This document shows, in pieces, positions 27,301 to 30,300 of a DNA stretch of 64,000 nt. Position 1 is the stretch's first letter. Each line of letters opens with the position of its first letter. This DNA comes from Escherichia coli (lineage in GTDB: Bacteria > Pseudomonadota > Gammaproteobacteria > Enterobacterales > Enterobacteriaceae), in NCBI RefSeq assembly GCF_045037415.1, contig NZ_CP173438.1, one strand, 5' to 3'. A program made the position numbers.

Positions 27301-30300
27301 CTGCTTTACGAAGCCGCCTGGTCTTATCGTACACCTGCAAAAGTTGGGGCATGGCTTATATATTACCGACCGGACTCTGTAACACAATATTCCAAAGATA
27401 TTGCATGGAAAGCTCAACAACGATTGTGTTCTCGTTACCGAAGTCTGACAGCAAAAGGGAAAAAATCACAAGTAGCCATTACGGCGGTGGCTCGTGAGTT
27501 GACTGGATTTATGTGGGATATTGCACTTGCTGCCCAATCATCATTCAGTCAGCAGAAGCAAAATTAAACCCTGAAGCAGTCAGACACGGAATGAGTGATC
27601 CTCGTAAAAGAATTCAGGGAAGCCAGAATGCGCTAATACCTGCACGTAGAAAGAGGCCAGCTCACTGCGTAAATCGTCATGGGGCTAAAATCCCCGAATA
27701 AGAGTTTGTAAAATCCAAGATACAGTCTGACTGTTTCAGGTTCTTTAATCCGCGATATAACGAAGCTCCCGGAGCTGCGTAAGGTCTTTTTGGGCTTAAT
27801 ATTTGACAAAGGTCATAAGAATTCTTTTTCCCGAGACAGACGGCACGAAGCGCTCTTTCTGCTGTGTTATTGTCCGCCTCCGCCAGACCGTCATCACTGT
27901 AATAACAGAGGGCGTCCCACTGATTCAGGACATAGCTGAACGCTTCGCCCAGTCTGGATTTTTTCGACAACGTGCCATTCTTCTCCACCATCCATTCATG
28001 CAGCGACGTCAGTAACGCTTTGCTTCGCTGCTGCCTGGCTGCAAGACGTTCAGACTCCGGTAAGCCCCGTATTTCATCCTCAATGGCGTACAGTTCACTG
28101 ATGCGCTTCAGAGCTTCTTCTGCCGTCGTACTTTTGCTGCTGATGTATACATCGTGGATTTTTCGCCGGGCATGGGCCCAGCACGCAACTTCTGTCAGTG
28201 CACCACCTTCACGTTCGGCACTGAACAGCCGATCGTAACCGCTGAATGCATCCGCCTGCAGGATACCCCGGAAGGGACGAAGGTGTTGTACCGGATGTTT
28301 TCCCTGCCTGTCTGGTGAGTAGGCGAACCAGACCGCCGGTGGCTCTGATGAGCCCGCATTCCGGTCATCCCGGACATACGTCCAGATGCGTCCTGTTTTT
28401 GCCTTTTTTCTGCCCGGTGCCAGCACTTTTACTGGTATGTCGTCAGTGTGAACCTTGCGGGTGTTCATCACGTAACGGTACAGGGCATCATTCAGCGGAG
28501 TCATTAACTGGCAGCACGCGTCAACCCAGTTGGAGAGTAATGCACGGCTCAGTTCGGCACCCTGTCGGGCAAAGATTTCACTCTGACGATACAGTGGCAG
28601 GTGTTCGCAGTATTTTCCCGTTAACACGCGGGCAAGTAATCCGGAGCCCGCGATGCCGCGCTCTATCGGGCGGGACGGCGCTGGCGCTTCAACTATACAG
28701 TCACATTTTGTACAGGCTTTTTTTACCCGAACAGTGCGGATCACTTTCAGGGCGCTACTCACCAGTTCCAGCTGCTCAGCACTGACTTCACCCAGATAAT
28801 CCAGCTCACTGCCACACTCCGGGCAACAGCTTTCTTCAGACTCCAGACGGTGTATTTCACGGGGAAGGTGTGCCGGTAACGGACGACGATGGCGCGACTG
28901 TCGCAACTGGCGGGGAACCTGCGGATCGTCTTCCCACCCACTGTAACGATCGCTGTCCTGTCGGCGTTGATTCAGCAGGGCCTCAGCCTGTTCAACTTCA
29001 CGACGCAGTTTTTCAGAACGGGTACCGAACAGCATCCGGCGCAGTTTTTCTATCTGGGCCCTCAGATGTTCTGTTTCCCGCTCCTCCTCTTCGATCTTTT
29101 CTTCGGCACGTGCCAGTGCAGAGCGCAGGAAGGCCTCCGTCTCTTCAACCAGACTCAGTTGCTGATCTTTCTGACGGAGGGCTTCAGCCTGCTCAGAGAG
29201 TAGCCTTTCCAGCTCAGTGATACGAATGAGGTATTTCCGACTCATGACCGTTTTTATAATCCGGCCATGACATTTTTACAACATTGTCAGTGCATTAAGG
29301 CGGGATGTTTTGGGTTGACGCCAGTCCAGTTTATCGAGGAACATTGCCAGCTGCGAGCGGGTAATGGATACCTTACCGTCACGCACCGCAGGCCAGATAA
29401 ACTGGCCTTCCTCCAGACGTTTGGTGAACAGGCACAGACCATCAGCATCAGCCCACAGGATTTTAATCGTGTCACCCCGTCGGCCGCGAAAGATAAACAG
29501 GTGACCGGAGAAGGGGTTCTCATCCAGCACATGTTGTACCTGTTCACCCAGACCGTTGAAGGATTTACGCATATCAGTAACGCCGGCAACCAGCCAGATT
29601 CGAGTGTCTGATGGGAGCGAGATCATCGTCCTCTCCCGGTCAGTTCACGGATCAACACCGTGAGCAGCTCTGGTGACGGATTTTCCAGCGTCATGTTACC
29701 GTGGCGGAACTCAACTTTACAGGAACTGGCACTGACTGTGCTTTGTGAAGGAGTGGATAAAAGCGGAGTAAGAGCCGCCACAGGCTCTTTCTGCTCATCA
29801 GGCGTTATCTCAACAGGTAATAATTCAACGCCAGCGCCAGAAGAGGTTGTTACCGGAAGACGCCGCGATATACGCCCTTCGTTCTGCCAGAGCCTGAGCC
29901 ATTTGAACAGGAGGTTATCATTGATATCGTGTTCCCTGGCAATACGGGCAACAGAGGCTCCTGGTTGTGAAGCCAGTTTAACCATTTGAAGTTTAAACTC
30001 ATTTGAAAATGTTCTGCGGGGTTCTGCGGGGTTCTGCGGATAATATTTTCTGTTCCATAACAGGTGTCCACTAGTTGAAAAAGTGGGCACCTACGTTACC
30101 AATACTGGCTTAATGGCTACATACGGCGGTCAGTTTACGCTTACAGAAATGTAATAAACACGTCCTACAATTAACTGAAGAGCATGGTGACGGATGAAGG
30201 AAAAAGCAGGAGTGTGTGGTGCCTCACAGATTTCCGACATCATAGCTGTCAACGACGGATGAAAAGCGGCTCTTCCGCAACTTGGGTGGAAGAAAATGGA

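Follow-up and report, generated by a model that had tools for sequence, protein, structure and literature searches.

A polymorphic 10-bp tandem repeat in the 5′ coding region of an IS66-family tnpA beside cnf1 in Escherichia coli, probably a low-copy VNTR

Contingency loci, such as those of Neisseria, Haemophilus, and Campylobacter, usually consist of many units of 1–7 nt, change at about 1e-2 to 1e-5 per generation, and govern surface or restriction-modification phenotypes that are under selection. In IS1 and IS3, programmed −1 ribosomal frameshifting takes place at slippery A-runs, on every mRNA. IS66 elements use translational coupling, not frameshifting, according to a statement in PMC3469429 that cites Han et al. 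2001. As in contingency loci, the tract described here is a 5′ intragenic repeat that sets the reading frame, units may be both gained and lost, and isolates of one clone may differ; however, it comprises 2–5 copies of a 10-nt unit, its alleles are lineage-stable, it lacks conservation, and what it controls is a gene of a mobile element, usually one already defective. As in IS1 and IS3, the output of transposition proteins hinges on a change of frame early in the IS coding region, although here the change is a heritable one of DNA length, with no slippery heptamer. The tract resembles low-copy VNTRs and slipped-strand short duplications in its perfect head-to-tail units, 2–5 of them at one locus, and in recurrent stepwise changes that cause frameshifts, whereas it departs from typical low-copy VNTRs in lying in an accessory gene of an IS instead of a host gene and in having an ancestral state of only 1.9 units. 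Its rate of change appears modest, roughly equal to the summed SNP rate over a few kb of flank. On balance, the tract is probably a low-copy VNTR in the 5′ coding region of an IS66-family tnpA and, in the window (the whole 64-kb stretch of E. coli DNA that was analysed), a neutral polymorphism.

The host element occupies positions 26155–30144 of the window on the minus strand, adjoining the cnf1 toxin gene, and comprises, together with its flanking duplications, the following features:

30145–30152, no strand: left copy of the 8-bp target-site duplication AGAAATGT (sequence)
30121–30144, minus strand: left terminal inverted repeat (GTAAGCGTAAACTGACCGCCGTAT)
29999–30058, minus strand: truncated tnpA, from the canonical ATG (30058–30056) to a premature TGA (30001–29999), encoding MEQKILSAEPRRTPQNIFK and stop, 19 aa (sequence; annotation of every 2-unit copy starts at this ATG)
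30011–30039, minus strand: the tract, with CCGCAGAAC(C) three times in a row on the coding strand, tnpA codons 7–16 (TRF, sequence, in-silico unit deletion, frame table)
29623–30090, minus strand: shifted-frame ORF with the tnpA body (HTH_Tnp_1), open upstream to GTG 30090 and CTG 30063; next in-frame ATG at 29985
29276–29626, minus strand: tnpB, IS66 Orf2-like accessory protein, intact (Pfam PF05717, E = 4e-36)
27820–29245, minus strand: 5′ part of tnpC (DDE transposase), cut by ISEc45; the mechanical ORF 27677–29245 continues into ISEc45 sequence
26374–27819, plus strand: ISEc45 (IS110 family), a 1,446-bp insertion in tnpC, with transposase ORF 26434–27567 (Pfam DEDD_Tnp_IS110 and Transposase_20)
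26186–26373, minus strand: tnpC 3′ remnant past ISEc45 (coordinates inferred from the F11 alignment)
26155–26178, plus strand: right terminal inverted repeat (GTAAGCGTCAACAGAGCGCCGTAT)
26147–26154, no strand: right copy of the target-site duplication AGAAATGT (sequence)

The element is a true IS66 insertion: its inverted repeats start with GTAAGCG and, compared over 26154–26178 and 30121–30145, match at 88% over 25 nt, and the 8-bp duplication flanks it. The three genes tnpA, tnpB, and tnpC are consecutive, with Pfam matches to HTH_Tnp_1 (3.9e-14), TnpB_IS66 (4.3e-36), and DDE_Tnp_IS66 (6e-95), the tnpC domains being those of an intact orthologue of 537 aa that carries LZ, zf-IS66, DDE_Tnp_IS66, and C-terminal domains. 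The same order of tnpA (HTH), tnpB (PF05717), and tnpC (zf-IS66 and DDE_Tnp_IS66), the GTAAGCG termini, the 8-bp duplication, and an ATGA overlap are shared with IS66, IS679, ISEc8, and ISCro1. In its 2-unit form the element measures 2,534 bp; PGAP gives it no ISfinder name and calls tnpC an 'IS66 family transposase'. A search for a promoter in the left end of the IS returned a single weak consensus match, no better than in shuffles. The ISEc45 insertion is present in UTI89 and absent in F11; in the window it divides tnpC, in addition to the frameshift in tnpA, so the state of the tract there would have no functional consequence.

Tandem Repeats Finder places the tract at 30011–30039, with period 10 and a consensus of GTTCTGCGGG, and its 2.9 copies lie head to tail with 100% identity. 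The first-pass annotation had described a perfect 10-bp tandem repeat at 30011–30038, which is borne out to within one base; in its phase, TTCTGCGGGG, the tract amounts to 2.8 copies starting at 30012. With 19 consecutive period-10 matches, this is the longest periodic run of the window, and none of 200 mononucleotide shuffles reached that number, their maximum being 13. The tract begins 105 nt inward from the terminal inverted repeat, whose end is at 30144, and its sequence had no match in the literature searched.

The tract had also been placed upstream of tnpA, in a 5′ leader, a position that does not hold: the tract is part of the coding sequence, 19 nt past the ATG used by all 2-unit copies. 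Codons are counted here from this ATG, at 30058 on the minus strand, from which every intact 2-unit copy is annotated as a TnpA of 141 aa. Compared with the 2-unit wild type, the window allele has one further 10-bp unit, and deletion of one unit in silico restores an ORF of 140–141 aa. Since a unit of 10 bp does not make up a whole number of codons, gain or loss of one shifts the tnpA frame; in a table of 1–7 units, 2 and 5 are in frame from the ATG and 1, 3, 4, 6, and 7 are out of frame, the intragenic unit number thus setting an ON or OFF frame in silico. From its sequence, the 3-unit allele of the window is predicted to yield an ATG-started product that ends after 19 aa and loses the whole of HTH_Tnp_1, the sole domain of TnpA (residues 12–59). 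The stop of the shifted-frame ORF overlaps the tnpB start as ATGA at 29623–29626, where the tnpA/tnpB overlap reads GGACGATGATCTCG. In RefSeq, PGAP annotates 3- and 4-unit alleles as intact proteins through CTG or ATC starts.

The census covered 5,426 complete E. coli genomes, and an allele was counted only where a match ran unbroken over its full length, as enforced by strict E-value cut-offs. Two units were found in about 818 places, three in 169 genomes (174 places), four in 18 genomes, and one in 29 genomes (31 places), with 1,010 places for 2–4 units together; roughly 80% of the about 1,050 copies have two units. No 5-unit allele occurs in these genomes, and a metagenome scan returned one contig with five units, back in frame and at the same junction. 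The comparison of copy number proposed at first reading returned 1, 2, 3, 4, and 5 units among copies of this element, and the repeat is not private to the window, since every close copy carries one unit or more, two in most cases. A sequencing or assembly artefact was considered for the window allele and is ruled out, because 169 independent complete E. coli genomes carry the same 3-unit sequence. The first-pass suggestion of a slipped-strand variable tract affecting tnpA expression stands as a description, in that length varies and each change shifts the tnpA frame; slippage itself we infer.

All of the 3-, 4-, and 5-unit alleles lie at a single orthologous insertion downstream of cnf1. A junction query recovered one common insertion site in 245 genomes, with spans of 331, 341, and 351 nt, and the sum 169 + 18 + 57 + 1 = 245 assigns every 3- and 4-unit allele to this site; copy number thus differs among strains at an orthologous locus. 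At other insertion sites about 760 copies were counted, all with two units, and no 3- or 4-unit copy was found at a new insertion site in the complete E. coli genomes. In a matrix of flank SNPs, haplogroup A (0 SNPs in 4.5 kb) includes alleles of 2, 3, and 4 units and haplogroup B alleles of 2, 3, 4, and 5 units, and, because both haplogroups hold several lengths, at least five independent length changes have taken place. The 1-unit allele represents a single inherited event at one junction adjoining sta1.

The finest comparison is provided by AVS0750 (2 units) and AVS0093 (3 units), which show no difference in 50,000 nt of backbone, nor in 10,185 nt of the island apart from one unit, the tract being the sole lesion of an otherwise intact element between these near-clonal isolates. 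Among genomes with haplogroup-A flanks, AVS0750 alone has two units, as against roughly 140 that have three; the other two perfect 2-unit matches belong to haplogroup D. Parsimony would favor a 3-to-2 change in AVS0750, which could also have arisen by gene conversion from other IS copies instead of slippage, and the one-unit difference between the two isolates may likewise reflect assembly error or gene conversion. Both F11 and AVS0093 carry three units with tnpB and tnpC intact.

A low-copy VNTR could account for these observations as follows. In one IS lineage, the sequence coding for S-A-E-P-R-R-T happens to hold CCGCAGAAC twice, 10 bp apart, and misalignment of these direct repeats in replication or repair would lead to gain or loss of 10-bp units. 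The lineage differs in this from its IS66 relatives, which encode ME(L/S)Q(D/S)WRKEPRKNY without any DNA repeat, whereas its own N-terminus, MEQKILSAEPRRTF, is encoded by a perfect 9-nt direct repeat. Alleles of 2 and 5 units would be read through from the ATG and those of 1, 3, and 4 units would not, so that in the 3-unit allele translation from ATG 30058 would halt after 19 codons, ahead of HTH_Tnp_1, and TnpA function would likely be lost. Since tnpB overlaps the tnpA stop, its coupled translation is probably reduced too. As the element is already dead, with tnpC split by ISEc45, variation in the tract is now presumably neutral, drifting within the hly-cnf1 island. Against this account, the shifted frame is open to GTG 30090 and CTG 30063, with Shine–Dalgarno pairing as weak as that of the ATG, PGAP annotates such products as intact, and about 760 two-unit copies elsewhere show no expansions, instability not being obviously uniform. 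Uneven instability would need the age of the cnf1 copy, or greater instability at three or more units, to be explained. A DNA hairpin was considered as a cause of instability and dropped, the single-stranded DNA fold being weak (−4.6 kcal/mol).

Alternatively, the tract might be an evolved contingency switch through which the IS toggles reversibly, with 2 or 5 units competent and 1, 3, or 4 silent, turning tnpA and the coupled tnpB off and on. The ON/OFF periodicity that follows unit number, the regain of frame by the 5-unit allele, and the stepwise alleles of 2–5 units at one orthologous site in two haplogroups are all consistent with such a switch, as are the near-clonal isolates one unit apart, where the tract is the only lesion of an intact element, and the contrast between AVS0750 and the 3-unit majority of haplogroup A, which favors a 3-to-2 reversion. 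However, the roughly 1,050 copies, some 80% of which have two units, reveal only about 6 events, and comparison of the genomes thus points to a switching rate much below about 1e-5 per generation. The off alleles are fixed across many strains and are invariant in tract length in repeated assemblies (UTI89 ×4, BH100 ×3), and two or three 10-bp units are far shorter than classical contingency tracts. Moreover, the perfect repeat is restricted to one IS lineage, the corresponding place in tnpA of IS66-family relatives being free of direct repeats, which gives no hint of selective maintenance, and some 2-unit copies have SNPs that break the repeat. Finally, in most carriers, the window included, tnpC is also destroyed, which would make switching pointless. 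An evolved switch thus appears unlikely. It is similarly doubtful that a pseudogene-like copy, such as those of F11 and AVS0093, could re-awaken by losing one unit, as AVS0750 may illustrate.

The extra unit might also be harmless, if a TnpA with an altered N-terminus were made from GTG 30090 or CTG 30063 or if translation re-initiated at ATG 29985. The body frame is open to GTG 30090 (155 aa) with the complete HTH domain kept, the ATG and the alternative starts have equal Shine–Dalgarno pairing (−2.8 to −3.0 kcal/mol), PGAP calls CTG- and ATC-initiated proteins, and the premature stop lies 13 nt ahead of the in-frame ATG. On the other side, initiation at CTG or ATC is very rare, and it was homology, not evidence, that led PGAP to these starts; re-initiation at 29985 would remove residues 1–21, including the start of the HTH. 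In addition, the about 760 copies elsewhere are all of two units and no 3- or 4-unit copy is seen to have moved to a new site, as expected if these were incompetent for transposition. A functional 3-unit allele is improbable.

A role on the opposite strand, as a hairpin that terminates or stabilizes an antisense or outward-reading RNA, seems very unlikely. The plus strand at 30005–30052 folds as RNA with −18.7 kcal/mol (z = −5.7), is followed by a U-run, and is flagged by a terminator scan, and the 2-unit form still reaches −9.8 kcal/mol (z = −3.25); however, the stem rests on G·U pairs that any G/T-rich direct repeat would provide, no promoter was identified in a search for one that could drive an antisense RNA, and the repeat is missing from relatives. 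The suggestion in the first-pass annotation that transposase or a host factor binds an array of sites close to the IS end is the least credible of these readings, because, although 105 nt separate the tract from the left end and an 8-of-9 match to the unit occurs about 205 nt inside the right end in mirror orientation (26360–26368), the tract is coding, the repeat itself is absent at the other end of the element, IS66-family relatives keep the peptide only and not the DNA repeat, the motif shows no excess in the element and occurs at chance level in the window (13 versus 9.9 ± 3.2), and functional copies have only two units, some with a SNP in one of them.

The low-copy VNTR is a modest curiosity and not a new system, and its practical consequences are modest as well. 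RefSeq/PGAP lists the products of about 190 tnpA genes as intact proteins despite the frameshift (WP_042033708.1, WP_032142953.1, and others), and the tract, whose length changes faster than flanking SNPs, offers a ready length marker (2–5 units) for typing in the hly-cnf1 pathogenicity island of uropathogenic E. coli. A reversible switch, if true, would be an unusual form of self-regulation by a mobile element. Work by Han et al. 2001 in the Journal of Bacteriology is said to have found that tnpA is required for transposition in the IS66 family. For the biology of these elements, the roughly 760 copies at other sites, all in frame with two units and with no out-of-frame copy at a new site among them, are natural-history evidence that IS66-family transposition needs TnpA.

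The tract is part of an insertion sequence of the IS66 family, oriented on the minus strand, which contains tnpA, tnpB and tnpC and shows every feature of the family that was tested. The main landmarks of the element are the following:

26154-26178 and 30121-30145, terminal inverted repeats of 25 nt, starting GTAAGCG
26147-26154 and 30145-30152, perfect 8-bp target-site duplication, AGAAATGT
29276-29626, minus strand, tnpB (PF05717)
26374-27819, ISEc45 (IS110 family, 1,446 bp) inside tnpC; absent from strain F11, present in UTI89

The tandem 10-bp repeat reported by the first-pass annotation, with coordinates at most one base off, was recovered by Tandem Repeats Finder (period 10, 2.9 copies, 100% identity) and reads GTTCTGCGGG GTTCTGCGGG GTTCTGCGG on the plus strand at 30011-30039. 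With 19 matches, against a maximum of 13 in 200 shuffles, it is the longest periodic run of the whole 64-kb window. Rather than lying in a 5' leader upstream of tnpA, as that annotation had it, the tract is coding and occupies tnpA codons 7-16, counted from the ATG at 30058. The left end of the coding strand reads ...ATG GAA CAG AAA ATA TTA TCC GCA GAA CCC CGC AGA ACC CCG CAG AAC ATT TTC AAA TGA, and this ATG yields the product MEQKILSAEPRRTPQNIFK, with a stop at 30001-29999. In silico removal of one unit restores an ORF without interruption, MEQKILSAEPRRTFSNEFKLQMVKL..., which runs to the ATGA shared by tnpA and tnpB, an overlap confirmed in the sequence; the three-unit window allele is a +10-bp frameshift. 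Since HTH_Tnp_1, the sole domain of TnpA, covers residues 12-59 (Pfam), the ATG-initiated window product loses the entire domain. Five units (+30 bp) are in frame again with a 10-aa insertion, and the two-unit copies inspected (Nissle, 04-00955, AVS0750 and pO113) are all annotated from the ATG with 141 aa. Directly after the tract in the gene, at 29975-30007, Tandem Repeats Finder also reports an imperfect direct repeat of 17 nt (AGTTTAAACTCATTTGA, 2.1 copies, 88%), which spans the codons SNEFKLQMVKL, where the HTH domain begins.

Copy number varies among copies of the element in other genomes, where one, two, three, four and five units were found. Synthetic versions of one to five units were used to query 5,426 complete E. 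coli genomes, with E-value cut-offs passed solely by full-length single-piece matches. Two, three or four units with these flanks occurred in 860 genomes (1,010 places), including three units in 169 genomes (174 places) and four in 18 (18 places), which leaves about 818 two-unit places by subtraction. A single unit was found in 29 genomes (31 places, every one on plasmids) and five units in none of these complete genomes, while a metagenome scan for at least five units returned one contig, with exactly five. Near-identical or 80%-identical tnpA copies also occur on short contigs labelled Bacillota, Segatella copri, Macrococcus brunensis, Rikenellaceae and Collinsella (comparison loci L007, L008, L010, L011 and L028), most likely as binning or contamination artefacts and not as true host range.

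A junction query, consisting of the IS end and the adjacent 156 nt of an ISEc16 remnant, detected the same cnf1-side junction in 245 genomes, with match spans of 331, 341 and 351 nt for two, three and four units, respectively; the 351-nt matches differ by a pure 10-nt gap, without SNPs. The 169 three-unit and 18 four-unit genomes, about 57 others and 1 partial match sum to 245, and the three-unit and junction searches show matching oddities (one genome with five places, one plasmid place), so all three- and four-unit alleles belong to one and the same orthologous insertion, on the downstream side of cnf1. The five-unit metagenome contig has the identical junction. Besides the genome with five copies of this junction, CH4811 has two and one copy is on a plasmid record, a pattern that points to amplification at the site, duplication of the island or faulty assembly. 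Between cnf1 and the IS66 element lie decayed IS fragments that are kept in every cnf1 locus examined; with cnf1 itself, they are:

32166-35210, minus strand, cnf1 (1,014 aa)
~31340-31792, opposite strand, truncated helix-turn-helix transposase-like pseudogene
~30383-31246, frameshifted ISEc16 (IS3-family) remnant

Thirteen orthologous loci were aligned over 4.5 kb upstream and 2.4 kb of the IS. Haplogroup A (window, F11, AVS0093, AVS0750 and UTI89) has 0 SNPs in the 4.5 kb, yet two, three and four units; haplogroup B (FDA1267, K56-43, TUM13773, NCTC9022 and the metagenome contig), about 25-30 SNPs apart from A, has two, three, four and five. If lengths change stepwise, this distribution requires no fewer than five separate length changes at the cnf1-side locus. 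AVS0750 (two units) and AVS0093 (three), both from one Swiss wastewater survey, differ by nothing but one unit across 50,000 nt of chromosomal backbone and 10,185 nt of the island. AVS0750 is the only two-unit genome with haplogroup-A flanks, against roughly 140 A-type genomes with three, which makes the recent loss of one unit (3 to 2) more parsimonious than a gain; its state may also stem from gene conversion by another IS copy or from misassembly. The remaining two perfect two-unit matches, strains 1105 and A24, belong to a fourth flank haplogroup, D. In both, IS911 lies within tnpA ~287 bp from the left end, tnpC contains stops and the tract remains at two units (1105 also has IS30 in tnpA of the cnf1-linked IS66); the same IS66 insertion has thus decayed here by an independent route. 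ISEc45 occupies the identical tnpC position in the window, UTI89 and all of haplogroup B (loci L002 and L047-L050), with an adjoining 33-bp deletion in K56-43 and FDA1267, and is missing from F11, AVS0093, AVS0750 and 04-00955. This patchy distribution requires recurrent site-specific insertion or recombination.

Further copies are linked to other toxin genes. All five one-unit copies examined (L004, L005 and L054-L056, on ETEC/STEC and Shigella plasmids) share an IS-end junction ~750 bp from the heat-stable enterotoxin gene sta1, on ETEC-type plasmids; each is a truncated IS, 10 bp short and out of frame, often followed by IS91 and stb. The sequences indicate that the one-unit allele is one inherited event, and with the sta1-side copy this element has left a second fossil linked to a toxin gene. 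On pO113 (NC_007365.1, 3001-3426), a two-unit copy lies beside the subtilase cytotoxin genes subAB and has a SNP in unit 2 (CCGCAGATC), and the cnf1-linked two-unit copy of 04-00955 has the SNP CTGCAGAAC, where PCRT replaces PRRT; substitutions of this sort should make further slippage rarer.

The likeliest account, with fairly high confidence, is that repeat misalignment toggles the ATG-initiated tnpA frame. Misalignment between two 9-nt direct repeats, easier with three or more, would add or remove 10-bp units, and unit number would set the frame: off at one, three and four units, on at two and five. Of the slipped-strand variable tract proposed in the first-pass annotation, the length variation that shifts the tnpA frame was found, and slippage is its probable cause. 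In off alleles TnpA would be lost, and transposition would stop, as all three genes are reportedly required for it. Coupled tnpB translation would also fall, given the tnpA/tnpB translational coupling described in a passage of PMC3469429 that cites Han et al. 2001. Away from this site, all of the approximately 760 copies have two units, with no three- or four-unit copy at a second site in the 5,426 genomes, which fits this account. In the window, tnpC is destroyed by ISEc45, so the state of the tract would have no functional consequence there, as in a neutral VNTR.

An evolved phase switch, to which the ON/OFF periodicity with unit number, the recurrent length changes and the AVS0750/AVS0093 pair would point, seems unlikely, because the events are few, the tract is not conserved, off alleles are fixed across lineages and repeated assemblies, and the majority of carriers are dead for another reason. 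It is equally doubtful that the three-unit allele still yields TnpA by initiation at another codon. The shifted frame has no stop back to CTG 30063 and GTG 30090, Shine-Dalgarno pairing is equally weak at these two codons and at the ATG, and RefSeq/PGAP lists frameshifted tnpA as intact, from a CTG with three units (146 aa, WP_042033708.1) or an ATC with four (142 aa, WP_032142953.1). The alleles thus annotated are:

L001, 6082-6522
L002, 6018-6446
L047
L049

However, PGAP start calls are driven by homology and out-of-frame alleles never spread to new sites; these starts are probably annotation rescue, not biology. An action of the tract on the antisense strand is very improbable. The plus strand at 30005-30052, comprising the tract and the flanking inverted repeat GAAAAT/ATTTTC and followed by a U-run (AUAAUAUUUUC), could form a G.U-rich RNA hairpin (-18.7 kcal/mol, z = -5.7, 0/200 shuffles; -9.8 kcal/mol with two units) that a terminator scan flags. 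Any repeat so rich in G and T is expected to give such a hairpin, and no transcript is known; the sense mRNA has no structure, and as ssDNA the fold is weak (-4.6 kcal/mol). Least credible of all is the binding array first proposed. Thirty related IS66-family loci of other Enterobacterales conserve W-R-K-E-P-R-K-N-Y-S-N-(D/E)-F-K-L at the equivalent region, with no direct repeat in the DNA (CGAAAAGAACCCCGTAAAAAT), an imperfect version (CAGCAGAACCCCGCAGGTC) is present in the nearest divergent relative, and the unit motif is no more frequent elsewhere in the element than chance predicts; there is thus no support for a conserved protein-binding array. The perfect 9-nt duplication is presumably an accident of codon choice in one IS lineage.

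In function the tract resembles a low-copy VNTR or short-tandem-duplication hotspot; its likeness to a contingency locus is one of form, and the tract lacks conservation. A literature search found no occurrence of the tract sequence. Its variation is a caveat for annotation, may be of use for typing within the hly-cnf1 island and offers indirect evidence on what TnpA does.
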